Made by a program: the position numbers and the translations under genes. The notes under the pieces were generated by a model. The model was not told the DNA's origin, ran no database searches, and was given only the letters and a program-made list of their open reading frames with translations. Positions 7,500 to 45,649 of a stretch of 64,000 bases of DNA are shown here, in pieces; position 1 is the first letter of the stretch, and every line of letters begins with the position of its first letter. Location: IMG/VR virus record IMGVR_UViG_3300045988_183134, positions 1 to 64,000 of that record; one strand, given 5' to 3'. The DNA comes from a virus.

Positions 7500-7527
7500 T
7501 TGTCAATCTGTGCGAATTGCGTACAAT
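7500..7527 (+). promoter_or_regulatory. dyad-box promoter, family copy
   Basis: TTGTCA atct GTGCGAA ttgcg TACAAT. Confidence 0.65.
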
Positions 7528-7593
7528 GAAAAATATAAGCCAAAAATATATCTTATCGTTGTCCCGCATGAGTTGATTGTGCGGGACTTTTTT
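7528..7593 (+). terminator. promoter-proximal leader ending in an intrinsic terminator (not homologous to the cassette family)
   Basis: GTCCCGCA..TGCGGGAC hairpin at 7561-7587 followed by TTTTTT, between the promoter and the RBS of 7616. Confidence 0.6.
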
Positions 7594-11098: not shown

Positions 11099-11210
11099 TA
11101 CTTGCAATGGCTTGCGAGTCCCATATAATTAGAAACGTAATCAAAAAGAACTATCTTTTGCGAGGACTCCGTTGCCGACGGCGTTCTCGTTTTCTTTTGT
11201 TCAAACGCAA

Positions 11211-11251
11211 AAGGCTGCCGCCCAGTAATGGGTAGCAGCCTTATTTTTTTT
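11211..11251. terminator. bidirectional terminator between convergent genes
   Basis: AAGGCTGC..GCAGCCTT hairpin flanked by an A-run and a T-run. Confidence 0.65.
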
Positions 11252-11302
11252 GTTTGTATCAACCGATAGGGCAGCAAATCATCTTGCCGCATTCAGAATG
11301 AT

Positions 11303-13189
11303 TCATTGCACGATTTCGCCCAGGTCATTTGCGTATTTCGGGTCACACATCATGAAGTAGTTGACGGGGCCGTACTCCAGACCGAGCTCCTGCGCGTATG
11401 CCTTGATAGTTTCCAGAACGTCCTCTTTCTTGAGGCCAAACTTGGAATGCAGACGGGCAAACTCTTTGTCAGAGACAGAAACGCAAGAGCAATTTTCTGC
11501 ATCGGTTTCTTTGCTGCCCAGCATCCCGTCAAAGATGTCCTGCCCTGCACAGAGAATCGTCTCATTGTTCATCGCATAGGCGATAACGGAAGCCTTACAG
11601 TCAAAGTCGCTGTCTTCCACAAGGAAATCCTCAGGGCGGCCGTGACGTTCAACAACGTTTTCATAGATGTCCCGGAGTTCGATAGGAGCAGAAGGAGCGG
11701 TCAGCGCTGCTTTATGAAGGCGCATGAATTCCACAAACTTTTCATCCGAGAGGGTATCGGTATAAAAGCCGATGCCGGAAACGCGAACCTTCACTTCGCT
11801 GGCAAAGTAATCGTCAATTTTGGAGACGATTTTCTGCTGAACCCGCTTGTACGCTTCCTGAACATTGGAAGCCGTGTAAAATACCGGGAACTTCATGATG
11901 TCGATTCCCTCCGGCAGACTCGCGTCATAGGCCGCATCAATGCCGCCTCGCAGCGCCGGAACCGCGTCATGCAGCTCTTTCACAGAAGAAATGTATCCGG
12001 TAATGTACAGCTCATCGTTTTTGCTGTAATGCCCGATAAGTCCTACATAGAGAGTCTGCATCAGCATCCGCTTGAAGCTGAACCAACAAAGACGAATGGG
12101 TAGAATGACATTAGCAGCCGTACCTTCCGCACGATAGGTGCCGGGGGCAGAGACCTTTTCCAGCAGAATCTGGTCGTTCTTGTCACCGTATTTTTCCTTG
12201 AAAAGAGCTTGAAGAATTTCAGTGGACGAAAGAGGAGTGGACATTGGAATCGTTTCATTCAGAAAAGAGAGGAATGCATCCACGTTGTCTTTCTGCCATG
12301 CGTCATCAGACATGCTTGCACGCTGCATAGAGAGCTTGTCTTTCCCGTCGTCAGGCAAGGGCTTATACCCACAGGCGATACGAAGCTCGTTCTCCGTGAC
12401 AGCATCCGTTGCGCTTGCAATTTTCTTGATGGTATTCTCGGTCGGCTGAGCTTTCGCGTTGCCGTTCGCAAGGTTACTGATATATCCACGAGTCAGCCCC
12501 GCTTGAAACGCAAACTTGCCCTGTGTGCGGGTTCCAATGGCTTTTTTGACCAGCGATGCCAGCCTTTGAAAGTCGGGCTCTTTGGGAAAGGTGGCCTCCG
12601 TATCCTTATTGCTGTTCTTTTCAAGTACCGACTTGTCCCAACCGGTGACAAGAGAATACCCAATATCCTTCAAGGATTGATAGGCAACCCCGTTCTGGTC
12701 AAGAGCCGGGGAGTAAATACCGCTGTTATCTTCCAGCTGCTCTACTGCCTCACGCATCATCCTTGCTTCGTTCATCAGGATGACGTCCGGGGCTTCAAGC
12801 CGGGCAAGACTCTTGTACCGATTATTGAGGCGCTCGACTCGTGCGGCCAATGCAGTGATGTTGGCAACTTGGTCTTCCGTTGCATGGGCAGAGATATCTG
12901 CACCAAGTTCAAAATGGTTCAGTGCAGGAATATCCACGCCTTTGCTCTTGGCGAATTCCACAATGGCTTCCGCGCCATAGAAACGCTTCTCATGGGCTGC
13001 GACAACTTTCGTTATCGTGTCGGCCGAGTTGTCCAGCTCAAGCACTTCACCTTTTCCGGCATCCTCGACATAACACCTGGCGTTGGTGAGAAAGCCTTTC
13101 AAAAAATCAGCATCCACATCCAGCTTCTTAGCGATGTCGGGCAGCTGCTTATAGAAAATCACGCGCGTGGCGAGGTTAACAGAAATCAT
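11303..13189 (-). CDS. large protein with a central XRE-type HTH
   Basis: 628 aa, AAAGGAG RBS; HTH KFAFQAGLTRGYISNLANG; one of three minus-strand genes, divergent from the operator region. Confidence 0.8.
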   Translation of the reverse strand: MISVNLATRVIFYKQLPDIAKKLDVDADFLKGFLTNARCYVEDAGKGEVLELDNSADTITKVVAAHEKRFYGAEAIVEFAKSKGVDIPALNHFELGADISAHATEDQVANITALAARVERLNNRYKSLARLEAPDVILMNEARMMREAVEQLEDNSGIYSPALDQNGVAYQSLKDIGYSLVTGWDKSVLEKNSNKDTEATFPKEPDFQRLASLVKKAIGTRTQGKFAFQAGLTRGYISNLANGNAKAQPTENTIKKIASATDAVTENELRIACGYKPLPDDGKDKLSMQRASMSDDAWQKDNVDAFLSFLNETIPMSTPLSSTEILQALFKEKYGDKNDQILLEKVSAPGTYRAEGTAANVILPIRLCWFSFKRMLMQTLYVGLIGHYSKNDELYITGYISSVKELHDAVPALRGGIDAAYDASLPEGIDIMKFPVFYTASNVQEAYKRVQQKIVSKIDDYFASEVKVRVSGIGFYTDTLSDEKFVEFMRLHKAALTAPSAPIELRDIYENVVERHGRPEDFLVEDSDFDCKASVIAYAMNNETILCAGQDIFDGMLGSKETDAENCSCVSVSDKEFARLHSKFGLKKEDVLETIKAYAQELGLEYGPVNYFMMCDPKYANDLGEIVQ

Positions 13190-13201
13190 GGTGTACTCCT
13201 T

Positions 13202-13323
13202 TCAAATATGTCATTTGCTGTATAATAATGTCATCTTCTGTAATTATAATAGCACATCTCGTACTAAAAAGCAAGCATGAATTTACAATAAATGACAATA
13301 AAATACACAAGATGACATATTTG
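13202..13323. promoter_or_regulatory. divergent control region: two ~39-bp inverted repeats carrying four A(A/G)ATGACAT operator-like sites
   Basis: ATGTCAT at 13208 and 13228, ATGACA(A/T) at 13292 and 13312, 20-bp spacing in each pair; minus-strand TTGCTT-17-TATTAT lies between them. Confidence 0.6.
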
Positions 13324-13454: not shown

Positions 13455-13513
13455 GGGAAATATAAAATAAATAAGTGTAAGCCGCAGAGGATAGGTTTCT
13501 GCGGCTTCTTTTT
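13455..13513 (+). terminator. promoter-proximal leader ending in an intrinsic terminator
   Basis: AAGCCGCAG..CTGCGGCTT hairpin at 13479-13507 followed by CTTTTT. Confidence 0.6.
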
Positions 13514-19449: not shown

Positions 19450-19797
19450 TTCTAGCTCCCAATTATAACATTGGTGCCCGGTATTTCATCCGCGAGGTAA
19501 CAAAACCCATGTCAAAGAAGGCATGGTCTCAGTGTAAGGCTAAAGTTCCTGACATTGAGCGTAGAACCCAATGCACATTGTACTCCCTTAAACAGTTGCA
19601 TTCACTGTTGAGCCCCCCCGTGGCGACTCAACAACCCAGGCCCATCTGTTGGGATTACACTGTGTTGCGAGAACTTTGCGGGAGACTAACCCCTATGTGG
19701 CGACCAATGCCGTCAGGCATTGTTAGCTAAGTTCGGGTCGTATCTCTACCTTCGGGTTACGCAGAGACTTACCGTGGGGTTACAACCCACGGAGAAG
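19450..19797 (+). ncRNA. ORF-free, GC-rich, hairpin-dense region; candidate structured RNA of unknown class
   Basis: UUCG-loop hairpin ACC-TTCG-GGT, CCGTGGG-GTTACAA-CCCACGG, ATGCC-GTCA-GGCAT; repeated GTGGCGAC; no credible ORF. Confidence 0.35.
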
Positions 19798-19836
19798 CCC
19801 CAACTATAGCCGAAAGGTTTAGGTGGGGAGGTCCAC
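19798..19836 (+). repeat. conserved GNRA-capped 5' UTR hairpin, copy A
   Basis: CCCCaaCTATAGCCGAAAGGTTTAGGTGGGGAGGTCCAC; 34/39 identical to 62319-62357, including a G.U to G-C change. Confidence 0.7.
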
Positions 19837-19870
19837 GATGAAGCATACAAAATTAGCGAGGTAGAAGTTA

Positions 19871-21942: not shown

Positions 21943-22152
21943 ATGAGTATAATGTTTGCAATGTGTCGAGATGGCTCAACCGTTCATGCCTTTGGAAACG
22001 CCATCAGTGTCAGCGGCCGGGGCATGAGTGAAACCTATATTTTGTGCGGGAACATGCTCACCGGCCCTCATGGGTTCAGGTCAAGGAACTGCAGGAGCAT
22101 CGACGAGGCGTTTTGCCTGGTGTGCGGTGTACACGGCGGAAAAAAATGGTAA
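21943..22152 (+). CDS. small Cys-rich hypothetical protein
   Basis: the track start (21916) lies inside the -10 box, so the next in-frame ATG is used; weak RBS. Confidence 0.4.
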   Translation: MSIMFAMCRDGSTVHAFGNAISVSGRGMSETYILCGNMLTGPHGFRSRNCRSIDEAFCLVCGVHGGKKW

Positions 22153-22183
22153 AGCAGTAAATAGCAGAAAGGATAGAAGAAAG

Positions 22184-23020
22184 ATGTTTCATTACAATAG
22201 CTTGATATGGTGGATGGAAATGGGAATTATTATACTTCTTCCTGTTACAATCTTTTTGCTTTATCTGTGCTATTTAGAGAAGCTCGTTGCGCGTTCCAGT
22301 AACCGATATTTGGCATATCAACAGCTTGTTAATAAATACGAATTCAATCAGGTAACTGACGTTATCAAATATAATATATCTGTGGACACAAAAGCCAAAT
22401 ATGACCGCTTCAATTTTGATAAGCGCGTTTATACGATGGTTTCGTCAAGGCGAGACAGGTTAGAAGAATTTTTGGCAAAAGTGGGTGAGAACAGAAAGTT
22501 GTATAAAGCATTTATGCGCGAATACAATAAGCTTCCTGCGTATAGCGGTGAGGATAAAGGAAATACCGAAAAGCAGCCAATACTTTATAAAACCGTTGAG
22601 AAGATGATGTTGAAAAGGGCAGAAAATGAGTGGCCGATTCCCACGACAGATATAATTCTTGCGTGTACAAAAACCTACACATCACCTCATGGCCGAAATT
22701 GCTACACAGACACAATGACATATACCATGGATGAAATCGAGTCATATATTCGTCAGTCATATGCAGAAGAAGAGAAAAAGACAAGCAAAGAATATCAGCG
22801 GCAACTCTTAACTCTTTCTTTGAGATATGACATTATGAAGCGCGATGGATTTCGATGCGTACTTTGTGGGAGAACATCAAAAGATGGCATTGCTTTGCAT
22901 GTTGACCACATTTTACCTGTATCAAAAGGCGGGCAAACCATACCATCAAATCTTCGCACTCTCTGCGACGTCTGCAATTTGGGCAAAAGTGATAAATATG
23001 ACAATGATGGATTAAACTGA
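22184..23020 (+). CDS. membrane-anchored HNH endonuclease
   Basis: N-terminal TM GIIILLPVTIFLLYLCYL; C-terminal RDGFRCVLCG..HVDHILPVSKGG..N.RTLC..CN.GK. Confidence 0.8.
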   Translation: MFHYNSLIWWMEMGIIILLPVTIFLLYLCYLEKLVARSSNRYLAYQQLVNKYEFNQVTDVIKYNISVDTKAKYDRFNFDKRVYTMVSSRRDRLEEFLAKVGENRKLYKAFMREYNKLPAYSGEDKGNTEKQPILYKTVEKMMLKRAENEWPIPTTDIILACTKTYTSPHGRNCYTDTMTYTMDEIESYIRQSYAEEEKKTSKEYQRQLLTLSLRYDIMKRDGFRCVLCGRTSKDGIALHVDHILPVSKGGQTIPSNLRTLCDVCNLGKSDKYDNDGLN

Positions 23021-23157
23021 AATCCTTGATTTGTGTTGTTTTTGGGGTGTGTTAAGGTCTTGATTTGTGTAGGATTTTACCCTTTCATAGGTCTTGATTT
23101 GTGTTAAGTCCTGAGACAAATACAAGAAATCGCGAACCCGATATAAGAAATTTTGTA

Positions 23158-23185
23158 TTGCTACAGCGTGCGAATTGCATACAAT
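23158..23185 (+). promoter_or_regulatory. dyad-box promoter, family copy
   Basis: TTGCTA cagc GTGCGAA ttgca TACAAT; a second degenerate box (TCGCGAAcccgaTATAAG) lies at 23130-23147. Confidence 0.65.
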
Positions 23186-23233
23186 AAAAGATGTCGAAAG
23201 ATAAACCACAACACACAAAAAGGAGATTTTAAC

Positions 23234-23434
23234 ATGAGCACTAGCATTCTGAAACTTGAAGCCACTGTAATCCGTCCCAAAGATTTTGACGAACTCGACG
23301 GCCTCGCCGCTTCCATCAGCTTCCCTGTCGAATACGATGATGAAGCAATTGGTGAGGCCCTGGGCGACCAGGACCTGATGGCCTATGTCGTCGGAGAGCT
23401 GCACGACCTCGTTGTCCGTATGCGTCCCGAATAG
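23234..23434 (+). CDS. small acidic protein ending at a TAG with an open in-frame extension
   Basis: AAGGAG RBS; 66 aa; 39 further sense codons run to the TAA at 23552-23554. Confidence 0.6.
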   Translation: MSTSILKLEATVIRPKDFDELDGLAASISFPVEYDDEAIGEALGDQDLMAYVVGELHDLVVRMRPE

Positions 23435-23678
23435 CTGGATAACGAGGATACCAGCCTGACCATCAAGGCATTCCTGGACGACGCCGAGTGCCAGACGTTT
23501 AAGGGCCTTGTTGCAATGAAAGAGGGCAGCTACACCTTCGACCTTGAAGGCTAAACACAACAGTGCAAAAGCAAACCCTGCTCGCAGCAAAATGCGGGTA
23601 GGACTTTTTTGTTTGCGTAGCTGCATCCTTTTGCCCGCAGAAACCGTAGGTGCCAGGATGCGTAGCTGCCGACATGGC

Positions 23679-23706
23679 TTGACCTGATGTGCGAGGCTCG
23701 TACAAT
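23679..23706 (+). promoter_or_regulatory. dyad-box promoter driving a stand-alone RNA cassette
   Basis: TTGACC tgat GTGCGAG gctcg TACAAT. Confidence 0.6.
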
Positions 23707-23794
23707 CAGATTTGTACGACAGATATCAAACACAAAATAGGGTTTACATTGAGCTGCTCAGTGGCCTTATGGCTGTTGGGTAGCTTTTTCTTTT
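23707..23794 (+). ncRNA. structured RNA cassette, family member (stand-alone)
   Basis: TTGTACGACAGATATCA box, TTTACATTG box, 14-bp stem GCTGCTCAGTGGCC/GGCTGTTGGGTAGC with five G.U pairs, then TTTTTCTTTT. Confidence 0.6.
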
Positions 23795-23812
23795 GTGCGA
23801 GTTGCGTACAAT
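23795..23812 (+). promoter_or_regulatory. dyad-box promoter copy lacking a -35 hexamer
   Basis: GTGCGAG ttgcg TACAAT immediately after the preceding T-tract. Confidence 0.5.
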
Positions 23813-23836
23813 AAAAACCAAGCGGAGGAAACGACG

Positions 23837-24244
23837 ATGAAAAAATTTATTGGAATTGTTTTAGTGTTGTGCTGCCTGGCTCTACCTTTGGCTGGCTGTG
23901 AGGACGCAATCAGCACTGTGACAAGTACCACAATGTCTGAACTCGAAGATATTCCGAGTCAGATATTGTCTACACCAGAAAGTGCTGAGACAGTACCGGA
24001 ATACAATTACATTCATTTTCGCTACGACAATATTTGGACCGTATCCGCTCTCGTAAGCTACGAAATCGTGGACAACGGGCAAAACATCAAGTTTGAAATC
24101 AACGATAGCCGTTATCGTGATAAAGTCTTTTATACCAGCATGTCCAATGTCGAGCTCGTATACCGCGACGATAGCGTTGATTATCGCACGGACTATGCTG
24201 TTTATCCTGGTAACACCTCGAAGTTTGACAGGAAGGGAAAATGA
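23837..24244 (+). CDS. lipoprotein
   Basis: GGAGGAAA RBS; signal peptide MKKFIGIVLVLCCLALPLAGC with an LAGC lipobox. Confidence 0.7.
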   Translation: MKKFIGIVLVLCCLALPLAGCEDAISTVTSTTMSELEDIPSQILSTPESAETVPEYNYIHFRYDNIWTVSALVSYEIVDNGQNIKFEINDSRYRDKVFYTSMSNVELVYRDDSVDYRTDYAVYPGNTSKFDRKGK

Positions 24245-24245
24245 C

Positions 24246-24716
24246 ATGAGTATTAAATTTATCGACGGCAATATTTTTTCACGACTTTCTGCGAGTAAGC
24301 CAACTTACATTTGCCAGCAAGTAAATTGCAAAGGCGTGATGGGAGCTGGACTTGCCATGCAAATTTGCATCCAATGGCCGGTGGTATATCAGCGCTATCT
24401 GGAGTTTTGCTATGGAAACAACGGCAACAAGCTCGGTACTTACCAGGAGGTTCTGGTAGAACCGAAACTGTATGTCGTGAATCTGTTCGGGCAAAATGGT
24501 TATGGCCGTGGTGAAAGGCAGACGAATTATGCTGCATTGGCGACTGCGCTGTTCTCGTTTTTTAGAGACTGCGCTCAAAAGAATCAGGACGTAACTATCC
24601 GGCTGCCATATGGCTTAGGCTGTGGCCTTGCCGGAGGCGATTGGAACACGGTTCTGGACATCATCAGCGATGCGGCTAAAGCCTGGAATGTAAATGTCGA
24701 GATTTGGAAGCTGTAA
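24246..24716 (+). CDS. Macro-domain (ADP-ribose binding/hydrolase) protein
   Basis: I.QQVNC.GVMGAGLA and LPYGLGCGLAGGDW motifs; start 2 nt after the previous stop. Confidence 0.85.
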   Translation: MSIKFIDGNIFSRLSASKPTYICQQVNCKGVMGAGLAMQICIQWPVVYQRYLEFCYGNNGNKLGTYQEVLVEPKLYVVNLFGQNGYGRGERQTNYAALATALFSFFRDCAQKNQDVTIRLPYGLGCGLAGGDWNTVLDIISDAAKAWNVNVEIWKL

Positions 24717-24774
24717 ATTGCTGGTGGGCGTTCTTTTTTGCCCAGAAGCAAGATGAAACATAGTAAAATAAAGC

Positions 24775-24802
24775 TTGCACATCTGTGCGAATCAGATATA
24801 AT
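24775..24802 (+). promoter_or_regulatory. dyad-box promoter, family copy
   Basis: TTGCAC atct GTGCGAA tcaga TATAAT. Confidence 0.65.
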
Positions 24803-24888
24803 AACCCTAATAAGATAAGAATTGTGCCCTGGCGGCTTCTGAATTGGATGCTGCCGGGGCATTTTTGTTTGTTAAGGAGAATTTGGCT

Positions 24889-27609
24889 ATGACACTGAAC
24901 GACTTGTCAAGCGAACAGCAGGAATTCGTACATTTGGCATTGTCGGGCAAAAACGTATTATGTGATGCCTGCATTGGCAGCGGAAAAACATCGACCATCA
25001 ACGTGCTCTGTGATGCGTACCCTCCAGAACGGCGTATCCTGTACTTGACCTATAACCGATTACTCAAACTTGACGCCAAAGACAAAATCAAAAATCATAA
25101 TGTCTTGGTTCAGAACTATCATGGATTTGCAAGCCTGCTGCTGAACAAAAAGGGAATCCGGAATTGCGGGCAGGGTGAACAGCTCGCCATGGTATTGGAA
25201 AAGAAAATTCCGATTCCGCCAATTGATACTCTTATCATTGACGAGTACCAGGATATCAATGACGAGATTGCAGAACTACTCAAATATATCCGCTCTCAGA
25301 ATCCCGGTCTACAAATCGTCGCTGTGGGCGATATGAAGCAGAAAATCTACGATGATACAGCGTTGGATGTCTGGACATTCATGCAGGATTTCCTCGGCCG
25401 CCATGAACAAGTGATTTTCACGAAGTGTTTCCGTATTTCCCATGACTTGGCAGAACGGCTTGGCAATATCTGGGGTAAGACCATCAACGGCGTAAATAGC
25501 TCCTGTATCGTGGAACAGATGTCGGTCGATGAAGTGACAGAGTTCATGAATAAGCAGAACCCAAAAAATGTCCTTTGCCTGGGTGCTCGAATTGGAGCCA
25601 TGACGAAGGTGCTCAATGACTTAGAGAATCGACCGGGGAACCTCTATGACAAGCATCATGTCTATGCAAGTATCGCAGACAATGATGGGAATAAGGCAGT
25701 AGCACCCTCCTCGGATGTTGGTATCTTCACAACTTTTGACGGCAGCAAAGGTATGGAGCGGCCTATCTGCGTTGTGTTTGATTTCACGGAAGAATACTGG
25801 TCGTCTCGTACAAGCAAACCGATGGCACGATATGAGATTCTTCGAAATTTGTTTTGTGTCGCAGCAAGCCGTGGAAAGCAACGAATCATTTTCGTAAACT
25901 CAGACCATCCGTTGAGCGATAAATCTCTGATGACCCCAACTGAAACTCTTCGCGGATTTCCGCATCCGTTCGCATTCTCTGAGATGTTTGACCATAAATT
26001 CATCGAGGATGTAGATGCCTGCTATAAGCTGTTGGAAGTCGCACCGATTGAACGTAATGATACCACGACCATTGATATCCAGACGGCAGATGCAATGATT
26101 GATTTGTCTCCCTGCATCAGCATCTACATGCAGGCAGGATTCTTTAATTCCTACGATATAGATGACGCACTTGCGTATTACATGGACCTGCATAAAGACA
26201 TGCAGTATTTGAAAATCAAGAAAGGCGCAACGGTCGAGGATAAGGTTCTGCTGCTCACGGCGCTTGAAACGAATCAGTGCCGGTATGTAAAACAGGTCAA
26301 GCCTCCTTTTGTGAGCGCAAAAGCCAAAATGTCGCTCAGTATGCGGCTTGGCACCGTGTTCACTCCCGATGAGTATGTTCAGGCACGCGGAGATATCGAC
26401 ATCCATACTAATGACCATAAAGTGATTTATGCCTCGGGCCTTGCGGATGTCGTAAAGAACAACACCGTCTACTGCATCAAGTTCATCAGCAGTCTGGCAC
26501 ACAAGCATTTTCTGCAGTGTGCGTGTTCTATGATTACGCTGGGGCTTCCATATGGCGTTGTCTGGAACGTGAAAAGTAACCTGATGTACAGCGTAAAAAT
26601 CAAGGATAAGGACGCTCTGATTGACGCAATCCTCAAGTGCATCACGAAACGAGCTTACAACGGCGCGGATTATTACACCTGCCGAAAAGGCTTTGTACAG
26701 GATACGGCATCGATTATCGACCGCTGGACTGACGACGGATATGCGGAAGAGCCCACCACTATCACTTCCGGAGATGGTATTGCCATCATCAAGCAAGGAA
26801 GCCGTTATTTCGTGATGGATGGAGCACGCCGAAACACTCTGAACGATAATTTTGGGCTTGGTTTTGCCGATGTGAAAGACGCTTGTCTTGCTTATGCGAA
26901 GAGTTGCGAACTTCAAAAAAACGTGGACCATGATTCTCCTTATTCCGAAGTCGAGTTCTGGCTCGACCAGAACAAGGCGTTTGAGGAATACATGACTCAG
27001 GTAAGCCATGAAATCGAGCAGCACGAAGAAGGACCGTATGCAAAATACAAGTCTTTCGCTACGCCTGCTGTCCGAAAGATGCTGGCGGAAAAGGGACTGA
27101 CCATCACGTTCCCGGAAAAAGTCCTCATCAAGGTTTGGAAGATGCGCCGCGCCGAAGATGCCATGTATCAGAAAATCGAAGAAGCAAAGAAGCAGAACAG
27201 CCCCAACGTACCTCTTGATGAGGCGTTCTTTGACTCTGAACTGGTGGATTCCGTTGAGGGAAGCATCGAAAGCGCCAAGGCAAAATCCAAGCCCAAAAAG
27301 GAATCCGCATTACCGTTTTCCAAGTACGGCGCAGATGAGAAGAAGAGCTATCGTGTCGTGAAAAGCGATGAACTCTCAAAGCCCAACCAGCCCCGTTATG
27401 TTGTGGTCGAGGCCGCAACTGATAAGGTCTTGGACAACGCTAACGGATACGGATACCTCTCCTATCAGGCTGCCTGGAAAGGGTATTCGTACAAGAGCAA
27501 GCATCATCTGGATGGGGCAAAGAAGCCTATGAGCAAGAGCGCAAAAGAACGGGCTAAGAAAAAGGCAGCTTTCTTCTCGACCGATTCGGAACAGCTCAGT
27601 TTCGGCTGA
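24889..27609 (+). CDS. UvrD/Rep-like SF1 helicase with a long C-terminal extension
   Basis: AAGGAG RBS; CIGSGKTS Walker A, IIDEYQD, VGDMKQKIY, FDGSKGMERP, VAASRGKQRI motifs. Confidence 0.85.
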   Translation: MTLNDLSSEQQEFVHLALSGKNVLCDACIGSGKTSTINVLCDAYPPERRILYLTYNRLLKLDAKDKIKNHNVLVQNYHGFASLLLNKKGIRNCGQGEQLAMVLEKKIPIPPIDTLIIDEYQDINDEIAELLKYIRSQNPGLQIVAVGDMKQKIYDDTALDVWTFMQDFLGRHEQVIFTKCFRISHDLAERLGNIWGKTINGVNSSCIVEQMSVDEVTEFMNKQNPKNVLCLGARIGAMTKVLNDLENRPGNLYDKHHVYASIADNDGNKAVAPSSDVGIFTTFDGSKGMERPICVVFDFTEEYWSSRTSKPMARYEILRNLFCVAASRGKQRIIFVNSDHPLSDKSLMTPTETLRGFPHPFAFSEMFDHKFIEDVDACYKLLEVAPIERNDTTTIDIQTADAMIDLSPCISIYMQAGFFNSYDIDDALAYYMDLHKDMQYLKIKKGATVEDKVLLLTALETNQCRYVKQVKPPFVSAKAKMSLSMRLGTVFTPDEYVQARGDIDIHTNDHKVIYASGLADVVKNNTVYCIKFISSLAHKHFLQCACSMITLGLPYGVVWNVKSNLMYSVKIKDKDALIDAILKCITKRAYNGADYYTCRKGFVQDTASIIDRWTDDGYAEEPTTITSGDGIAIIKQGSRYFVMDGARRNTLNDNFGLGFADVKDACLAYAKSCELQKNVDHDSPYSEVEFWLDQNKAFEEYMTQVSHEIEQHEEGPYAKYKSFATPAVRKMLAEKGLTITFPEKVLIKVWKMRRAEDAMYQKIEEAKKQNSPNVPLDEAFFDSELVDSVEGSIESAKAKSKPKKESALPFSKYGADEKKSYRVVKSDELSKPNQPRYVVVEAATDKVLDNANGYGYLSYQAAWKGYSYKSKHHLDGAKKPMSKSAKERAKKKAAFFSTDSEQLSFG

Positions 27610-30523: not shown

Positions 30524-30616
30524 GTAAAGTGTGAACAGATACTAAGCAATCAGTAGGATTCACAATCTGTATTTTAAGCGGACTTATCCCATAGCGGGGT
30601 AGGTCCGCTTTTTTTG
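30524..30616 (+). ncRNA. structured RNA cassette, family member
   Basis: GTGAACAGATACTA box, TGTGAA/TTCACA helix, ATTCACAATCTG box, terminator AAGCGGACTT..AGGTCCGCTT followed by T7. Confidence 0.6.
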
Positions 30617-31841: not shown

Positions 31842-31952
31842 AAAAATTGTACGATAGATAACATTCCATATCGAAAGGGTTTTATGCCTTTCGTACATTC
31901 ACAATTTCGCTTAAAGGGCGGACTTCCTGTTTTTAGGGAGCCCGCCCTTTTT
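31842..31952 (+). ncRNA. structured RNA cassette, family member
   Basis: TTGTACGATAGATAACA box, GTACGA/TCGTAC helix, ATTCACAATTTCG box, terminator GGGCGGACTTCC..GGGAGCCCGCCC followed by T5. Confidence 0.65.
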
Positions 31953-31978: not shown

Positions 31979-32719
31979 ATGTTCAAAATTCACGATGACA
32001 AAGTCTATTTCGTCGCCGAAACCCCCGATATCAACAAAGTTATCGAAATCTTCCTACCTAAGGATGACCGCGGCACCATTATGGATTCACACGAAATCCG
32101 TGTGGACCTGTGCCGTGCCGTCATTCACATGGAGAAGAAGGGTGTCCGTGTCTTGAAGGTCCGCAACATTGAGGATACCAACAAGGCAAGCATCGACATC
32201 TGGCACATGCCGGAATATCAGGAGGCTGCAGAGTCTCCCGTAAGCGATGTGGTCAATGCCTGCATTGAGTCCTGCTTTGATTCCGGTGCAATGTTCAATC
32301 TGCCATGCAAAGCCAACCGCAAAACCCATGAAGTTTTTGCTGTCGAATGCTGCGCAAGCCCCGATGATGATGACTCGTTCAGTTATGCAGAAGTGAAAAT
32401 CAACGGCAAGGATTATCCTATCAATTTTATTGACGATATTCTTCTCGAAAACAATGTTGATGATGCGCTGGATGAGTTTTATAGAATTCAGCAGACAGGC
32501 GAGTATTGGCAGCCTGATGGCAACAAAACGCTGGATGATGCCATTCACGAATGTCGTTGGGCTATCCTGAAGGATGCCATCCAGAAGCGCGGACATGAGG
32601 CTGTTGCTGATTTTGTCGGGACCGACATTTCCAGCGATACTTACGACCGCGTGATGGATGAAACCGAAGCCCAAATGCCGGACGAAGAGTTCGAGCGCTT
32701 CTGGGAAAAGTACATCTAA
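31979..32719 (+). CDS. hypothetical protein
   Basis: ATG 9 nt after AAGGAG (the track start at 31955 abuts the terminator); 246 aa. Confidence 0.65.
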   Translation: MFKIHDDKVYFVAETPDINKVIEIFLPKDDRGTIMDSHEIRVDLCRAVIHMEKKGVRVLKVRNIEDTNKASIDIWHMPEYQEAAESPVSDVVNACIESCFDSGAMFNLPCKANRKTHEVFAVECCASPDDDDSFSYAEVKINGKDYPINFIDDILLENNVDDALDEFYRIQQTGEYWQPDGNKTLDDAIHECRWAILKDAIQKRGHEAVADFVGTDISSDTYDRVMDETEAQMPDEEFERFWEKYI

Positions 32720-32754
32720 GAAACATCTCACACACAGAAAGGGAGCATATTACT

Positions 32755-33081
32755 ATGGCTATTTTCAATACCAACGAATTTCTCCACAAAACCTTCAGCA
32801 AGACCATCTTTGGTACTGCTGCACTTCGTCCGGAAGCAGTTTGTGCAGACGGCTTCACCCTGTCGATTCAGGCAAGCGGCATGCACTACTGCATACCGAA
32901 CGAAGACCTGTCGGACGGCAATTACTCTAAGGTCGAACTCAGCTACTTGTCTGAGGAGGTCGAAGAGTTTCTGCCGTTTGCTGAAGACGACGAGGCACCG
33001 CTGGCTACGGTCTACGGGTATGTGCCCGTAGAAACCGTAGAAGCGGTTCTGGCCAAGCATGGCGGCATCGTCAACGTTTAG
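32755..33081 (+). CDS. hypothetical protein
   Basis: 108-aa ORF with AAGGGAG RBS. Confidence 0.65.
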   Translation: MAIFNTNEFLHKTFSKTIFGTAALRPEAVCADGFTLSIQASGMHYCIPNEDLSDGNYSKVELSYLSEEVEEFLPFAEDDEAPLATVYGYVPVETVEAVLAKHGGIVNV

Positions 33082-33096
33082 GAAGGAGGAATACCA

Positions 33097-33426
33097 ATGC
33101 TAAAGACTTTCACTATCGTCGCCAATGAGGTCATTGGCTTATCCGCAACGGAATGCACACTGATTCAGTTTAGCTACAATCCGGAGCAAATCCGTGACCC
33201 CGAAACGGTCCTGCGCAGTGCTGTCATGGACTATCTCAAGACGGATGAAGGCAAACGACAGCTGGAAATCAACTGTGGTTGCTGGAACTGGGGCGATGTC
33301 GATGACATTCCCGGCTCGTTCTTCTTGAACTATGGTCTGACTAAAATCGCTCCGCCGGATGTGAATGTTGTCGTCGACCGCAACGAGAACTTCATGGACG
33401 ACTACGAGGATTGCGAGGAAGAATAA
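33097..33426 (+). CDS. hypothetical acidic protein
   Basis: 109-aa ORF with GGAAGGAGG RBS. Confidence 0.65.
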   Translation: MLKTFTIVANEVIGLSATECTLIQFSYNPEQIRDPETVLRSAVMDYLKTDEGKRQLEINCGCWNWGDVDDIPGSFFLNYGLTKIAPPDVNVVVDRNENFMDDYEDCEEE

Positions 33427-36947: not shown

Positions 36948-37475
36948 ATGTCAAACAAAGAAGAACGCATGAACCGCAATAAAAGCATCATCGAAGATTA
37001 CAAAAATAGAAAGCCGATTTTAGAAATCGCGAGGGAATATAATCTTTCAGAAACGATGTGCTACAAGATTCTAAAAGGTACGCAGGAGCCGCCTCGTTAT
37101 TTTGAAAAAAAGAGGAAGAGACTTACCACTCGAAATGAGCAAATTGTTAAACAGTATAAAGGCGGTATGACGGCCAGAGAATTGGGCAAGATGTACGGCA
37201 TTTCCATGCAGCGTATTTATGCAATCTTGCATTCGAGCGGAGAGTACGAAAGCCAAAAATACAATCATATTGAAACGGCTCTCAAAAAAGAGAAAAAGAT
37301 GCGGAACCAAACTTTTCTTGATGCTTACAAGAAAAATCCTCGAAAATCGATTATCGAGTTGAGCAGGGAGGTAAATATCAGCCCTTCACTAGGTTACCTT
37401 ATCCTTCATCAAAATGGGATTTACCAGTATAACGTAAAAGCCAGAGCTAAGGAGAATAGCGAAAATGCCGATTAA
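36948..37475 (+). CDS. tandem-HTH protein (3 repeats)
   Basis: GGAGG RBS; repeats ILEIAREYNLSETMCYKIL, ARELGKMYGISMQRIYAIL, IIELSREVNISPSLGYLIL. Confidence 0.7.
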   Translation: MSNKEERMNRNKSIIEDYKNRKPILEIAREYNLSETMCYKILKGTQEPPRYFEKKRKRLTTRNEQIVKQYKGGMTARELGKMYGISMQRIYAILHSSGEYESQKYNHIETALKKEKKMRNQTFLDAYKKNPRKSIIELSREVNISPSLGYLILHQNGIYQYNVKARAKENSENAD

Positions 37476-37983
37476 CAAGATTACCCACGTGTGTCTAACT
37501 CATGACAAAGTCAGGGCACGAAATGAAAAGATGCTGGAGGATGCCAAGAACGGTATGTCCCAGGAACAGCTGGCCGAAAAGTATCAAATCTGTGTTTCTA
37601 CTGTCCGATATAGTCTGAAGGACTTTTACGAAGAACAGGCCCGGCAGAGAAAAGCAAAGAAGAAAGCCTGGCAAACCCAGATGATTCATGAATATGAGAT
37701 GGGCGCAAAATCTCCGGAGCTTCAGGAAAAATACGGCATCAGTGGAACGCTCTTTTATCGGATTCTTCATGCGCACGGAAAGAATGGCCGACAAATCCAC
37801 AGCCAAAACCGTATCGAGACCGGCAAGAAAAGAAACGCCGAGATGGTCAGGAAATACAAGAACGGCGTTTCTGTCAAAGAGCTTGCGGAAGAATACGGGC
37901 TCAAAAAGGGAAGCGTATATCGCGCCATGAAGCGGTATAGTCCAGGCCCAGGGGAAAGTAAAAGTTGTCAAAGTGAGGAATAA
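37465..37983 (+). CDS. tandem-HTH protein (3 repeats)
   Basis: AAGGAG RBS; repeats QEQLAEKYQICVSTVRYSL, SPELQEKYGISGTLFYRIL, VKELAEEYGLKKGSVYRAM. Confidence 0.7.
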   Translation: MPINKITHVCLTHDKVRARNEKMLEDAKNGMSQEQLAEKYQICVSTVRYSLKDFYEEQARQRKAKKKAWQTQMIHEYEMGAKSPELQEKYGISGTLFYRILHAHGKNGRQIHSQNRIETGKKRNAEMVRKYKNGVSVKELAEEYGLKKGSVYRAMKRYSPGPGESKSCQSEE

Positions 37984-37987
37984 TTGC

Positions 37988-38941
37988 ATGGCTGCATCAA
38001 AGAAAGATGTTGCGAAGCAGCAGGTCAAAGAAGACCGCGAAAAGGTTCGGGAAATGTATCTTTCTGGCAAAACTGTCAAGGAAATCGCCAAGGAAACGTA
38101 TTTTTCAAGCTCTTATTGCTATGCCATGGTGAGAGACCTAGCAAAAGAAAAGAATCTTGCAAAGAAAGCAAAAAGAGCACCTCTCAACGAAGCTATGATT
38201 CAAGATGCGAAAGCCGGGATGACGGTTGCTGAAATCGCAAAGAAGCATGGCGTGACTTATCAGCAGTGCTACTATACTGTTTCTGAATACGCTCAAGCTA
38301 CGATTAAGAAGAACAAGAAAAAGCAGTCTGCTGCCACGAAAGTTCGCAATGCGGCTATGTTGGAAGATGCGAAAGCCGGAATGACTGATAAGGAAATCGC
38401 CAAAAAATACTTTTTGTCTCGAAGCAGTGTCCGTACCGTCCTTGCAGGGCATTTACATACAAATTCCAAAAAGTTGGATGAAAGGCGCAAGGCGATTCTT
38501 GCGGATTATGAGGCAGGAACGTCCTCAAAAGACATCTGTGAGAAATACGGTATTTCAAAATCCACTCTTTACAAGGACATGCGCCAAGTTGAAAAAACCT
38601 GTCAGGAATACTATCACAAGGCGCTGAAAGACAAGACCAATCAAAGGAATTCCGATATTCGAAGCAAAATCGAAAGAGGGGTCTCGGTCAGCACTATTGC
38701 CAAGGAATACGGAATCTCTAAAACGGCGATTTATGAAACGTTTCATCAGGAAAATGTCAGAGCTGGAATTTTACAGAAACGCGGCCGTCCGCGAAAAAAC
38801 ACGGAACGTAATGCACTGATTGCTAAACGCCACAGGGAAGGCGAGAAGGTGCAGGCGCTTGCCACTGAATATAATCTCTCTGTTTCGACGGTAAACACTA
38901 TTTGCAGTAGAAACAAAAATCAGAATATAACCTCATATTAA
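37988..38941 (+). CDS. tandem-HTH protein (6 repeats)
   Basis: GAGGAA RBS; six units of about 50 aa, e.g. VKEIAKETYFSSSYCYAMV and VSTIAKEYGISKTAIYETF. Confidence 0.7.
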   Translation: MAASKKDVAKQQVKEDREKVREMYLSGKTVKEIAKETYFSSSYCYAMVRDLAKEKNLAKKAKRAPLNEAMIQDAKAGMTVAEIAKKHGVTYQQCYYTVSEYAQATIKKNKKKQSAATKVRNAAMLEDAKAGMTDKEIAKKYFLSRSSVRTVLAGHLHTNSKKLDERRKAILADYEAGTSSKDICEKYGISKSTLYKDMRQVEKTCQEYYHKALKDKTNQRNSDIRSKIERGVSVSTIAKEYGISKTAIYETFHQENVRAGILQKRGRPRKNTERNALIAKRHREGEKVQALATEYNLSVSTVNTICSRNKNQNITSY

Positions 38942-41765: not shown

Positions 41766-42011
41766 ACAATTGTTCTCAGGAAGAGGAACGGCTCCTGAGA
41801 CATCAAGGTTTTCCTTTCCCCAATCTTGGTCGCATGGCTTCATTTGAGCTGACACAGGTGAAGCGTGAAAATCATCCGTTTCATAGTAATATCCTTCCTT
41901 TCTTTGGCGTGGGTAACTCCGCGCCAGCCGTCCAAGTAAACAGCCTCCACGCGGCGGACGGTGGACAACAGATGTTTCCGTGTTCCGGGCATCTGGCTAA
42001 TGTTTGTATTT
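41766..42011 (+). ncRNA. structured leader of the tRNA operon
   Basis: hairpins CTCAGGA..TCCTGAG, GCTTCA..TGAAGC and CCGTCC..GGACGG; no ORF. Confidence 0.35.
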
Positions 42012-42087
42012 GCTGGTTTAGCTCAGCTGGTAGAGCAACTGATTTGTAATCAGTCGGTCATCGGTTCAAGTCCGATTTCCAGCTCCA
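42012..42087 (+). tRNA. tRNA-Thr(TGT)
   Basis: hand-folded cloverleaf, loop TTTGTAA, CCA encoded; U.U mismatches at 6-67 and 7-66. Confidence 0.75.
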
Positions 42088-42560
42088 GACGCTATCCGTT
42101 GGATGTATCGAAATCACATGATACGATGCTATACACAACATCTGGCGGACAGCATGCCACCCATTAAGGCGGCCTCCTCGTGGCGGGTGGCGGACAGCGG
42201 CTCTTGCGGCTGCTGACGAATGTCTTAGAAGCATGCAAACGTACGAGCATCCCCGTCAAGTCGGGGCGCATCCAGACGCGACACAGCCGTAAAGGCGAGA
42301 TTGCTGCACGGCAACTGGTAAGTTTCGCCGCAGTCTCACACACAGCCCAACGACAACCGTTAACCCGATTTGACAGGGAATCAACGACAGGGCTCAAAAT
42401 TTGAAGTTGACCAACACCCAAGCGCTTTCTTGGATTCTCGCGTATCGTCAACGATGAGGTTCGCAAGATTGTCAGGTGGTGTGAAGATGACATCCGGGGA
42501 TGACGACCTACTAAACGGATGTCATGGCGGGGCTAAGTGAGGGTTCACCCGCAATCTTAT
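42088..42560 (+). ncRNA. 473-nt ORF-free structured spacer; candidate large ncRNA
   Basis: 10-bp stem ATGACATCCG..CGGATGTCAT, CCCCG-TCAAGT-CGGGG, several GNRA-type loops; only short, unsupported ORF-track entries (42164-42493 on the - strand, 42180-42404 on +). Confidence 0.35.
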
Positions 42561-42635
42561 GCAGGTATCGTATAACGGCTAATACTCCGCCCCTCCAAGG
42601 CGGAGACGCGGGTTCGACCCCCGCTACTTGCTCCA
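42561..42635 (+). tRNA. tRNA-Gly(TCC) with C33
   Basis: perfect CCGCC/GGCGG anticodon stem, loop CCTCCAA; D-arm TCGTATAACGGCTAATAC resembles Gly-UCC; discriminator U; CCA encoded. Confidence 0.75.
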
Positions 42636-42907
42636 CACGTCGCAGTCACCGTACGCCACGACGTTAAACTTGGTGAGCATGGTCCACTTGTGGTCCGCTG
42701 TCCGAATGTCGATGAGACAGCCTCAAAAATAATAGACAAACAGGTGCTGTGCCTGAAAGTATTCGAAAGTCCCGGTGTTAGTCGCGAATAAGACCGGAAA
42801 ACGGTGAATAGGGTACAATACAGAATCTATCGGCGTGGCTGCCGAATGGTGCTGGATGCGAGTTGGCTTCTCGCTCAAGGGGTGACCAGCATAAAACACC
42901 CTATCGT
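42636..42907 (+). ncRNA. 272-nt ORF-free spacer
   Basis: no credible ORF; GC-rich inverted repeats. Confidence 0.25.
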
Positions 42908-42983
42908 GCTCGATTAGCTCAGTTGGTAGAGCAGCGCATTCGTAACGCGCAGGTCGGCAGTTCGAACCTGCCATCAAGCCCCA
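42908..42983 (+). tRNA. tRNA-Thr(CGT)
   Basis: cloverleaf, loop TTCGTAA, anticodon arm GCGCATTCGTAACGCGC; one C.A acceptor mismatch; CCA encoded. Confidence 0.8.
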
Positions 42984-43021
42984 TTACCCAATGAAGCGAC
43001 AATAGAAAGGAGATGAAACTT

Positions 43022-43405
43022 ATGGAACAGGCAATTATCAATGTTGAAGGTACGACTACCATTGAAACCGCTGCAGCGGCAAAAAAGCTGATTGAAATGT
43101 TTGGCAATCAGAACGTCCGCGCCATCGCTGTCAACCGTGTAAACGACAAGAGCGACGAGGTCATTGTTGAACTCGATTTCGTTCCCGGTTTGGCACCGCA
43201 TCTGCACGGCTTCACGCTTCAGGTTAATGGCTTGACCTGTGGTTATGCTGGTACTGGTCCTTCCAATCTGTATGAAGTCCTGCAGGCGGCTGGCGTGAGT
43301 GAAGCTCAGGTAGCACGCGAGGACATCACTCAGAAGAGCACAAAAACCATTCCTCTGCGCCTGGAACGCGCCGTGACTCAGTACGGCGACTTCCAGTTTG
43401 CGTAA
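43022..43405 (+). CDS. hypothetical protein embedded in the tRNA array
   Basis: ATG 10 nt after GGAG (the track start at 43013 is too close to the RBS); 127 aa. Confidence 0.6.
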   Translation: MEQAIINVEGTTTIETAAAAKKLIEMFGNQNVRAIAVNRVNDKSDEVIVELDFVPGLAPHLHGFTLQVNGLTCGYAGTGPSNLYEVLQAAGVSEAQVAREDITQKSTKTIPLRLERAVTQYGDFQFA

Positions 43406-43435
43406 CGCTATTTGGCGGGCTTGACCCGCCATCAT

Positions 43436-43511
43436 GGAGGGATAGCTTAGCTGGATAAAGCACCTGCCGCAAAGCAGGGTATCGATGGTTCGAGGCCATC
43501 TCCCTTCTCCA
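43436..43511 (+). tRNA. tRNA-Cys(GCA)-like with a 6-nt anticodon loop
   Basis: good acceptor, D and T arms; CCTGC/GCAGG stem encloses CGCAAA (no U33); CCA encoded. Confidence 0.55.
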
Positions 43512-43870
43512 TCCAGACACCCTTTCGCTTCCTTTCGCCAAAGGTATCTGGGGTATTGTACTGCATTGCGTGTAGTACGGCCAATCAGGCGCGGAACTCC
43601 GAAACCATACCACGAAGAATTTTATCCTCTCCGCGCAGCATGGACATGCGATTTTACGGGGATAAATTCAAACCGAAATTGTGTCGAGTGGCGAAGACGG
43701 TTGCGACACTGGCGAAGCACATATCTGCTTCGTCAACCATCCATGAGAAAGCCTCCACGTGGCAGATGGTGGGCAACGCAGCAAAGCTGCGGCTGATTTC
43801 TTTCAAACCGGTATCTGAATAAATGCAGATAAATAGACGAAAAAATCAAAAAAGCAAAGGAGTACACAGC
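43512..43870 (+). ncRNA. 359-nt ORF-poor spacer
   Basis: no RBS-supported ORF between the tRNA and 43871. Confidence 0.25.
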
Positions 43871-45004: not shown

Positions 45005-45041
45005 TTTGCCATCCTCTAACTAACGGTAATCGATAGTTATT

Positions 45042-45115
45042 CGAGGATTCGCCAAACGGTAAGGCATCAGGCTTTGACCCTGACAACGGTTGTTCGACTC
45101 GACCATTCTCGGCCA
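45042..45115 (+). tRNA. tRNA-Gln(TTG)
   Basis: cloverleaf, loop CTTTGAC, D-arm GCCAAACGGTAAGGC; CCA encoded. Confidence 0.8.
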
Positions 45116-45195
45116 ACGCTCACTTTCATGCGCATCGGAAGTGAGATTCCTCAAAGCTGTGTTCCCATAAGCAAGGCACGGAAGATGCGCGACAA

Positions 45196-45271
45196 GTGCT
45201 CGTAACTCAATCGGTAGAGTACCCGACTTTTAATCGGGGTGTTCGGGATTCGATTTCCCGCGAGCGCACCA
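45196..45271 (+). tRNA. tRNA-Lys(TTT)
   Basis: cloverleaf, loop CTTTTAA; CCA encoded. Confidence 0.85.
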
Positions 45272-45302
45272 TGCCCGGCAGAGCATTATCTGCCACTTTT
45301 GT

Positions 45303-45378
45303 GGGTGTATAGCTCAGTAGGCAGAGCGGCGGACCGTTAATCCGTTTGTCGCAGGTTCAAATCCTGCTACGCCCGCCA
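45303..45378 (+). tRNA. tRNA-Asn(GTT) with C33
   Basis: cloverleaf, loop CCGTTAA; CCA encoded. Confidence 0.8.
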
Positions 45379-45381
45379 TAA

Positions 45382-45459
45382 GCTCCTCTGGTGAAATTGG
45401 CAGACACAGTGCGCTCAAACCGCACCGTTTTGAGGGTTCGAATCCCTCGGGGAGTACCA
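45382..45459 (+). tRNA. tRNA with CAA (Leu) anticodon and Leu-type D-arm but no long variable arm
   Basis: perfect GTGCG/CGCAC stem, loop CTCAAAC; D-arm TGGTGAAATTGGCAGACAC; 6-nt variable region; A73; CCA encoded. Confidence 0.6.
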
Positions 45460-45488
45460 TGTCCGGCAGTACAACAACTGCCATTTAT

Positions 45489-45564: not shown

Positions 45565-45567
45565 TAT

Positions 45568-45642: not shown

Positions 45643-45649
45643 TCTATAT

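Follow-up and report, generated by a model that had tools for sequence, protein, structure and literature searches.

The unit at positions 23679-23812 of IMG/VR virus record IMGVR_UViG_3300045988_183134 seems to be a degenerate copy of a multi-copy, phage-specific leader cassette. According to this reading, to which a probability of roughly one half is given, a leader for premature termination has decayed and is followed by a crippled core derived from a promoter. The analysis covered positions 1 to 64,000 of the record (the window), a phage-like genome segment with almost all genes on the + strand. A preliminary description of the same DNA had taken the unit for an independent small RNA (sRNA) gene rather than a 5' leader. 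Such a gene is possible, but this assignment was not supported by the comparisons described below, in which the unit proved to be a diverged copy of a cassette that recurs as a cis-acting leader.

The unit, its flanks and the two genes behind it contain the following features.

23616-23626 and 23660-23670, + strand: two direct repeats TGCGTAGCTGC, 44 nt apart, immediately preceding the -35 of promoter 1
23679-23706, + strand: promoter 1, with -35 TTGACC (23679-84), spacer motif GTGCGA (23689-94) and -10 TACAAT (23701-06)
23713-23728, + strand: 5' box TGTACGACAGATATCA, which opens the transcript and is separated by 6 nt from the -10
23729-23750, + strand: degenerate A-rich middle of 22 nt, with what is left of the linker and of the P1 3' strand (ACACA)
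23751-23794, + strand: intrinsic-terminator-like element, hairpin plus T-tract (terminator scan and folding)
23785-23794, + strand: T-tract TTTTTCTTTT, adjoining GTGCGAGTTGCGTACAAT; 9 U in 10 nt
23795-23812, + strand: promoter-derived core GTGCGAGTTGCGTACAAT, i.e., GTGCGA-GTTGCG-TACAAT, without a -35
23824-23828, + strand: ribosome-binding site (RBS) GGAGG, 30 nt after the T-tract
23837-24244, + strand: lipoprotein-like open reading frame (ORF) of 135 aa, ATG at 23837, starting MKKFIGIVLVLCCLALPLAGC, lipobox LAGC (no match in a PHROGs search)
24246-24716, + strand: phosphatase-like ORF (PHROGs phrog_335, phosphatase, 1e-36)

The promoter, the hairpin, the T-tract that adjoins the GTGCGAG box of 23795-23812, and the lipoprotein gene had all been placed correctly in the preliminary description. 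The stem of 14 bp with five G.U pairs given there is also correct; it extends to 16 bp (23751-23786), contains G+C and is closed by the loop UUAU. Folding of this hairpin gave -22.4 kcal/mol (z = -5.4) for the + strand versus -8.3 kcal/mol (z = -1.6) for the - strand. Therefore, the hairpin is a feature of the RNA and is specific to the + strand. Its stability equals that of the canonical cassette terminators, and its stem sequence differs from the GCRGACU arm of the family. The first unit is non-coding, as had been noted: 23707-23794 contains no ORF with an RBS. The RNA predicted from promoter 1 to the T-tract is ~72-83 nt, in agreement with the transcript of about 80 nt proposed earlier, and such a short terminated RNA would be the product expected if no read-through takes place.

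Promoter 1 (TTGACC-N16-TACAAT) matched the consensus at 10 of 12 positions in the consensus scan and scored 20.6 bits with a position weight matrix, the -35 part contributing +8.3. It falls in a phage-specific class, TTGnnn-N4-GTGCGA-N6-TAnAAT. The transcript probably starts at ~23712-23714, because the spacing of 6 nt from the -10 to the box is the same as in 106 of 113 cassettes.

The 5' box of the unit, TGTACGACAGATATCA, differs at one position from the family box TGTACGAYAGATAMCA. The latter was matched seven times in the window, always on the + strand, versus 0.98 expected, and the box was found in more than 116 IMG/VR viral-contig stretches, often two to five times per locus. A covariance model (R1) was built from 45 non-redundant copies. 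In the window it detected nine copies: four strong ones, four divergent ones and the unit itself, which is therefore not unique. Furthermore, R1 gave 195 matches in 792 kb of related viral loci; 746 kb of bacterial loci that share the 16-mer yielded none. The unit is an outlier of the family. It scored 16.7 bits (E = 0.43) and its orthologues 15-20 bits, versus 75-107 bits for canonical copies. A rare C at box position 8 is common to the unit and to the copy at 52004-52110. The other copies in the window are listed below; all are located between a promoter and an RBS with its ORF.

31844-31952, + strand: canonical copy with three-way junction, linker, antiterminator and terminator (R1, 91.8 bits; fold)
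52004-52110, + strand: canonical copy (R1, 89.0 bits; fold)
60944-61044, + strand: canonical copy, terminator followed by GCGTACAA (R1, 83.3 bits; fold)
56670-56771, + strand: canonical copy (R1, 75.6 bits)
51325-51391, + strand: minimal copy with the compensatory P1 change UGCACGA/UCGUGCA (R1, 40.5 bits; sequence)
50072-50167, + strand: divergent copy (R1, 40.0 bits)
30533-30615, + strand: divergent copy without P1, keeping AGAUAC, AUUCACAAUCUGU and the terminator (R1, 36.4 bits)
59899-60003, + strand: divergent copy (R1, 32.4 bits)

A scan of the window with Rfam 15 at the gathering threshold returned only tRNAs and one hepatitis delta virus (HDV)-like ribozyme and no cassette family; at E values up to 10, the regions 23600-23900 and 51900-52250 gave noise only. 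The literature searched yielded comparable systems and no description of the element itself. The 16-mer was considered as a clue to the bacterial host and rejected: its matches were scattered single ones in all phyla, ~10^3 are expected by chance in 596 Gb, and none is a cassette by the covariance model.

In canonical copies the promoter is followed by the 5' box, a three-way junction, the linker AUUCACAAU, a 5-bp antiterminator opposed to an intrinsic terminator, and the RBS and gene. The U-tract of the terminator is located 90-104 nt beyond the box. The transcript begins with the box, UGUACGAUAGAUAMCA, whose sequence is invariant beyond the needs of pairing. In single folds, P1 is formed by UGUACGA and UCGUACA, and P2 by UAGAU of the box and AUCUA; these are accompanied by a variable P3 and followed by the single-stranded segment AUUCACAAUUYYGC and a terminator of 12-14 bp. 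The terminator is 98% paired, and 9 of its 12 pairs show compensatory (double) changes. P1 is invariant in the main set; compensation is seen in divergent copies, as UGCACGA/UCGUGCA (51325) and UGUAUG/CAUACA (locus L031), and P2 has the variant UGGAU/AUCCA (locus L059). The P3 hairpin adjoins the 3' strand of P1 in 83 of 96 cassettes and is made of 41 different stems.

When the 3' arm of the terminator was withheld, UUYYGC paired with the 5' arm of the terminator, GCRGA, in the minimum free energy (MFE) fold. This antiterminator helix of 5 bp is 96% paired over 117 distinct sequences, versus 21-48% when slid, and one of its pairs varies (C-G 61, U-A 38, U.G 13). A permutation test agreed with the pairing, where two sub-lineages may inflate the signal. 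RNAalifold on a MAFFT alignment recovered the terminator alone, because the middle hairpins vary in length; the junction is shown by the single folds, the divergent copies and a position-based count. Pairing of UUYYGC with the segment after the terminator (GCAGAA/GCGU) also beat the permutations. It was not relied on, because TTTTTTGTTTGCG also follows non-cassette terminators (family D13) and the sub-lineages are confounding. A hammerhead, other known ribozymes and a purine-type aptamer were rejected as well: the junction lacks their conserved cores, and Rfam gave no match.

Most of this architecture is missing from the unit. MFE, centroid and truncated folds showed neither junction hairpins nor an antiterminator in its middle, and the 5' 40 nt are essentially unstructured. 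At the position of the family linker AUUCACAAU, the unit has the remnant UUUACAUUG, versus AAUUCACAC in its orthologues. The whole arrangement of the unit is kept in 21 related viral contigs, some of which show intermediate states such as ...UGCACACAAUAGAAUUCACACUAAGCUGC..., in which UGCACA is the remnant of the 3' strand of P1. These states, in which traces of the AUUCACA linker and of the 3' strand of P1 are left, thus identify the unit as a decayed member of the family. It should be mentioned that in one relative, L143 (82-1700; also in L288), a 420-aa IscB/HNH-like ORF flanked by near-identical hairpin repeats (CCCACGACTAAAGTCGCGGG) separates the RBS of the lipoprotein gene from its ATG, the insertion being exactly between the two.

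The position of the cassettes indicates their role. Of 115 distinct cassettes, 112 are free of a promoter core in the 70 nt that follow the terminator, and in the copies inspected an RBS and an ORF are found ~10-50 nt after it, so the cassettes are cis leaders. The genes behind the cassettes, which elsewhere in the window include a helicase-like gene among others, can be expressed only once the terminator is overcome. The sole other cassette lineage with a promoter core after the terminator is represented by L074 (1025-1132, - strand of the locus), L038 and L082. There the core lies ~45 nt downstream of the terminator and has a near-normal -35, GTGCAT, making this an independent case of the order cassette, terminator, promoter and gene. 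Three further promoters of the window (7497, 13424 and 24772) have leaders with strong intrinsic terminators before the RBS (7561-7593, 13479-13513 and 24825-24866) and no box; one of these leaders, the one that precedes a helicase-like gene, is kept in all relatives examined. Judging from these arrangements, leader termination seems to be a general strategy of this phage.

The cassette is considered to be a cis-acting control point for premature termination between a promoter and a gene block. In canonical copies, transcription would terminate by default and would read through once a factor stabilises the weak antiterminator; the likely contacts of this factor are the invariant box, the junction and the AUUCACAAU linker. 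The putative trans-acting factor is most likely a phage-encoded protein made earlier in infection, and a small molecule or RNA polymerase seems less likely. A phage-encoded factor is favoured over a metabolite because the element precedes functionally unrelated genes many times per genome. In the unit at 23679-23812, the junction and antiterminator would have decayed, leaving the promoter, the box and the terminator. Because the antiterminator is lost, transcripts from promoter 1 should mostly stop at 23785-23794, and the RNA of ~72-83 nt would be released as a by-product of termination. The lipoprotein-phosphatase operon would then have two inputs: residual or regulated read-through, and the remaining activity of the core at 23795-23812, whose -35 was probably lost in a single ancestral rearrangement.

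This logic has precedents. BglG/SacY/LicT-RAT systems are protein-dependent attenuators. A "zipper-type" attenuator has been described in pLS20-family plasmids (PMC13401043). Like attenuators, riboswitch platforms and the pLS20 zipper, the cassette combines a promoter, a structured 5' element, a weak antiterminator overlapping the 5' arm of the terminator, an RBS and a gene, and like attenuators it has its structured element and its terminator at a fixed short distance. Unlike them, it has no Rfam match, is present in many copies per genome before unrelated phage genes, and starts exactly at +1, welded to a special promoter class; the unit moreover is without sensor and antiterminator.

The core at 23795-23812 had been described as a second promoter serving the lipoprotein gene. 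The core itself is in keeping with this: it is conserved and scores 24.1 bits, among the best of the window, it is identical at 17 of 18 positions to the genuine promoter core at 7510-7527, and it lies about as far from the RBS as do direct promoters such as 58185. It recurs with a normal -35, TTGCGT, in L275 and L287, and the positions that vary among orthologues are low-information spacer positions. The upstream half of a promoter, however, is missing. The -35 slot reads TTTTTC, without TTG, the -35 part of the score is -3.8, and an extended -10 is absent as well. Of 208 distinct strong cores compared in ~1.1 Mb of related DNA, 193 have a -35 score of at least 3 bits and 15 a negative one; 12 of the latter are orthologues of 23795-23812. 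The -35-less module is confined to one orthologous lineage and arose once. In addition, CGUACAA of the core is complementary to UUGUACG of the 5' box, which is the same pairing as P1 in canonical cassettes, and such a role in the RNA would explain the conservation of the core as well as a promoter role does. From these features, the core has somewhat less than an even chance of acting as a promoter of physiological significance. If it is weak or inactive, as it may be, expression of the lipoprotein operon would depend on read-through from promoter 1.

Sequence variation was counted over 18 distinct orthologues of the unit, a shallow set of closely similar sequences. The variable positions number 3 of 16 in the 5' box (14 of 28 in its flanks), 11 of 22 in the middle segment and 13 of 36 in the hairpin. 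The T-tract and core together vary at 2 of 28 positions and the remainder of the unit at 50 of 133 (p = 0.0014). The hairpin is 96% paired in 12 orthologues, and eight of its pairs change on one side only, from G.U to G-C or A-U. Covariation within the unit's own lineage is not available, the orthologues being too similar.

Several of these observations weigh against the proposal that the unit is a decayed termination leader. The T-tract and core form its most conserved segment, which argues that the core is functional and not a mere scar. The antiterminator of the canonical copies rests on 5 bp with one truly covarying pair, and the sub-lineages, UUCUGC/GGCAGAC and UUUCGC/GGCGGAC, mean that shared ancestry could be behind part of the signal. 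Among the families listed for the ~69 window proteins scanned, of which 59 were represented by their most frequent families only, no RNA-binding antiterminator was recognised; only multi-helix-turn-helix (HTH) DNA-binding proteins were prominent. Finally, the box has been kept in the unit even though the "sensor" is gone, and minimal cassettes are little more than a box and a terminator. Both facts fit processive antitermination by a box-recruited factor at least equally well.

Processive antitermination is the main mechanistic rival. In this mechanism, the promoter-proximal box loads a factor onto RNA polymerase, which then ignores the terminator of the leader and those further on; the unit would still be fully functional, and in the absence of the factor it would give a short RNA analogous to lambda 6S RNA. 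The box could be read as nascent RNA, as in HK022 put, pLS20 conAn2 and Tn916 canT, or as DNA in the initially transcribed region, as in the lambda Q-binding element (QBE) and the sigma-dependent pause element. The mechanism explains better why the box alone, invariant beyond pairing, persists in the unit and in the minimal copies that have no junction or antiterminator. The fixed distance of the box from the -10 makes promoter and box one module, and the box-less leader terminators after 7497, 13424 and 24772 would need polymerases modified upstream. On the other hand, neither the constant distance between box and terminator nor the covarying pairing of linker and terminator is needed by such a mechanism.

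Close parallels are found in lambda, where pR'-tR' yields the 6S RNA, read-through depends on Q antitermination, and the QBE lies between the -35 and the -10. As in lambda, a promoter is followed by a short non-coding transcript and an intrinsic terminator just upstream of genes that need read-through, and there are a conserved motif between the -35 and the -10 and a conserved initially transcribed sequence. All promoters have GTGCGA at the position of the lambda QBE, and TACGAT, present in most boxes, resembles a -10 hexamer. However, GTGCGA is also present in promoters without a leader terminator, and the key T, at -7 of the hexamer, is the one position of the box that varies: the unit and its orthologues have TACGAC, TACGAA or TACGAG. 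Unlike lambda, with one such site, this phage has at least nine per 64 kb, and unlike Q sites the cassette shows RNA covariation in P1, P2, P3 and the antiterminator. Domains of the Q, N, NusG or LoaP type were absent from the Pfam and PHROG families listed for the ~69 window proteins, which represent part of the genome. Structures of lambda Q antitermination complexes are available for comparison (PMC6606751, PMC9388147).

An RNA form of the same mechanism finds parallels in mobile elements. The put element of HK022 is a cis-acting antiterminator RNA, processive on distant terminators. Cis-acting antiterminator RNAs also exist in Gram-positive mobile elements, namely conAn2 of pLS20 (PMC8191782) and canT of Tn916 (PMC11658703). 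The cassette resembles all three in having a structured RNA right after a mobile-element promoter and upstream of intrinsic terminators, and it resembles conAn2 and canT in its Gram-positive-type context (strong AGGAGG ribosome-binding sites and sigma-A-like promoters). The three RNAs are processive, present once per operon and without terminator pairing, unlike the cassette RNA, which has its own terminator ~20 nt away and pairs with it. Altogether, processive antitermination is a tentative explanation, clearly less probable than the decayed termination leader.

Somewhat less probable again, and best called unlikely, is the existence of two independent units: a trans-acting sRNA of ~72-83 nt, and behind it a lipoprotein operon whose real promoter is the core. 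In the sRNA, the exposed 5' box would serve as a seed or a protein-binding site; in a variant, the sRNA would be a decoy titrating the factor of the other cassettes. The own promoter, the strong strand-specific terminator hairpin and the absence of an ORF are as expected for such a gene; the lack of structure in the 5' 40 nt is shared with many base-pairing sRNAs, and without an antiterminator termination would be the default. The score of the core, its 17/18 match to a real promoter core, its promoter-like distance to the RBS and its conservation together with the T-tract speak for the second unit, as does the lineage of L074, L038 and L082. This explanation is opposed by the missing -35 TTG, essentially unique to this locus among the 208 cores and not offset by an extended -10, and by the homology of the unit to cassettes that act as leaders. 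Furthermore, the complement of the box occurs in the window only in the cassettes' own P1 strands and in the core at 23795-23812.

It is improbable, but should be considered, that promoter 1 is the sole promoter and the hairpin a poor terminator, so that the whole region forms one long 5' untranslated region. An irregular long hairpin would then stabilise or process the 5' end of the mRNA, as an RNase III site or by 5' protection. Such a structure is the MFE fold of the read-through RNA 23711-23840 (-37.3 kcal/mol, z = -3.1; none of 200 shuffles was as stable), in which UUGUACG (23712-18) pairs with CGUACAA (23805-11), and CACAAAA with UUUUGUG. Both helices are 94-96% paired in the orthologues, their partners include the box and the core, the most conserved parts of the unit, and the box/CGUACAA pairing is that which forms P1 in canonical cassettes. 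However, these helices never vary and therefore show no covariation, the 16-bp stem with 9 U in 10 nt corresponds to the textbook form of an intrinsic terminator, and pairing alone leaves the GTGCGA at exact promoter spacing unexplained.

It is also quite doubtful that the cassette family represents a previously undescribed phage riboregulator from which the unit has been exapted as a constitutively terminated trans decoy sRNA for the box-binding factor. The family would in that case be a promoter-welded 5' sensor RNA with its own antiterminator/terminator switch, and throughout a large clade of uncultured gut phages it would serve about ten transcription units in each genome. The RNA of the unit, which keeps an exposed 5' box without the switch, would tune the timing of read-through at the other cassettes.

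That the unit is merely a scar of illegitimate or homologous exchange between repeated cassettes, with no regulatory meaning of its own, is very unlikely, because the box, the T-tract and the core are significantly more conserved than their neighbours in the 18 orthologues, a sign of purifying selection, and the pairing of the hairpin is kept through one-sided changes. Several observations speak for such a scar. Cassettes of promoter and terminator recur 20 times or more across the window and adjoin each other, with terminator T-tracts repeatedly next to promoters. The -35-less module has a single origin, and the duplicated promoter cores, GTGCGAGGCTCGTACAAT and GTGCGAGTTGCGTACAAT, are identical at 15 of 18 positions. 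Close relatives whose helicases are 95-98% identical differ in the block 23167-24707, which some of them have and others lack. Composite promoter-early/stem-loop cassettes (PeSLs) of T4-type phages provide a precedent (PMC2839356, PMC4122927). Like them, the elements here are short terminator/promoter cassettes repeated between small genes, and the duplicated core looks like a shuffling junction; unlike them, they include a conserved leader RNA, whereas a PeSL is a terminator followed by a promoter, in another phage group and with other sequences. The cassettes are plausible substrates of modular shuffling, a role suggested solely by the presence/absence polymorphism.

The promoter class to which promoter 1 belongs is widespread in the window. 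The pattern GTGCGAG...CGTACAAT occurs 16 times versus 1.18 expected, always on the + strand. A position weight matrix built from relatives found 21 class sites (560 to 60911), all on the + strand and none on the - strand; examples are those at 3148, 7497, 23155, 24772, 36805 and 58185. GTGCGA lies between the -35 and the -10 in all 21, including those without a leader terminator, and the invariance of TGCGA in the spacer suggests that a phage factor, besides the host sigma, recognises these promoters. Three consecutive genes (36948-37475, 37465-37983 and 37988-38941) encode stacked HTH modules (2, 2 and ~6, respectively) that are Mor/sigma-70 region 4/HTH_23-like; internal DNA repeats at 38072-38418 correspond to the modules. 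These three proteins are candidate regulators of the GTGCGA promoters. Both TGCGTAGCTGC repeats upstream of promoter 1 are kept in relatives, even where the sequence further upstream differs, and it is possible that they form a binding site for a regulator, either an operator or an activator site. A DNA palindrome between the -10 of promoter 1 (TCGTACAA) and the box (TTGTACGA), although perfect in the window, is kept neither in the orthologues nor in other cassettes and was therefore not accepted as a general operator.

As to the genomic setting, the window carries 17 tRNA genes in two blocks within 42012-46906; the anticodon loop of the tRNA at 43436-43511 has 6 nt (CGCAAA), and its type could not be assigned by ARAGORN. 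The HDV-like ribozyme (RF02682, 47.9 bits; 41927-42007) adjoins a tRNA-Thr gene. Megablast of 22000-26000 against GenBank phages gave no match, and tblastn of GenBank with the helicase gave matches of 7% coverage only, in Staphylococcus jumbo phages, and no annotated relative. TAG is the stop codon of just 5 of 83 long + strand ORFs. Reading TAG as sense turns several + strand frames into long ORFs (noted at 23432-23434 and in the frames 11141-13225 and 32662-33426), and the ORF upstream of the unit would run from 23434 to a TAA at 23553-55, just before a terminator at 23577. These frames hint at TAG recoding in this phage; no tRNA with a CUA anticodon was called in the window. TAG recoding has been reported for gut phages with theta ribozymes (PMC10879173). 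A batch Pfam search assigned TIR, NADAR, GmrSD_N, NgoFVII-like PLD nuclease, EcoRI-type adenine methylase and several HNH endonucleases to ORFs within 141-31795 (the individual ORFs are not resolved), a set that looks like defence or counter-defence genes. Finally, a 54-nt repeat (GCCCCAACTATAGCCGAAAGGTTTAGGTGGGGAGG...; 80% identity) is present at 19797-19850 and 62318-62371; it forms a hairpin and ends in GGAGG, and it may be another conserved leader element.

The logic of the cassette is already known from attenuators, riboswitch platforms, the zipper attenuator, lambda Q and cis-acting antiterminator RNAs, and the family is absent from Rfam. If the proposal is correct, a clade of uncultured phages, with genomes of ~100 kb or larger, rich in tRNA genes and possibly using TAG as a sense codon, would time much of its gene expression by a dozen or so copies of a leader RNA and not by promoter switching alone. 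This would offer a testable handle on temporal regulation, in which the covariance model serves to annotate transcription units and the conserved 16-nt box serves as bait for the regulator. The unit at 23679-23812 would be a natural dissection of the cassette, in which promoter, box and terminator survive the decay of the junction and the antiterminator, and would show how repeated regulatory cassettes recombine into new junctions of promoter and terminator. For annotation, it is a warning that a phage unit consisting of a promoter, a short RNA and a terminator may be an attenuated leader and is not necessarily an sRNA gene.

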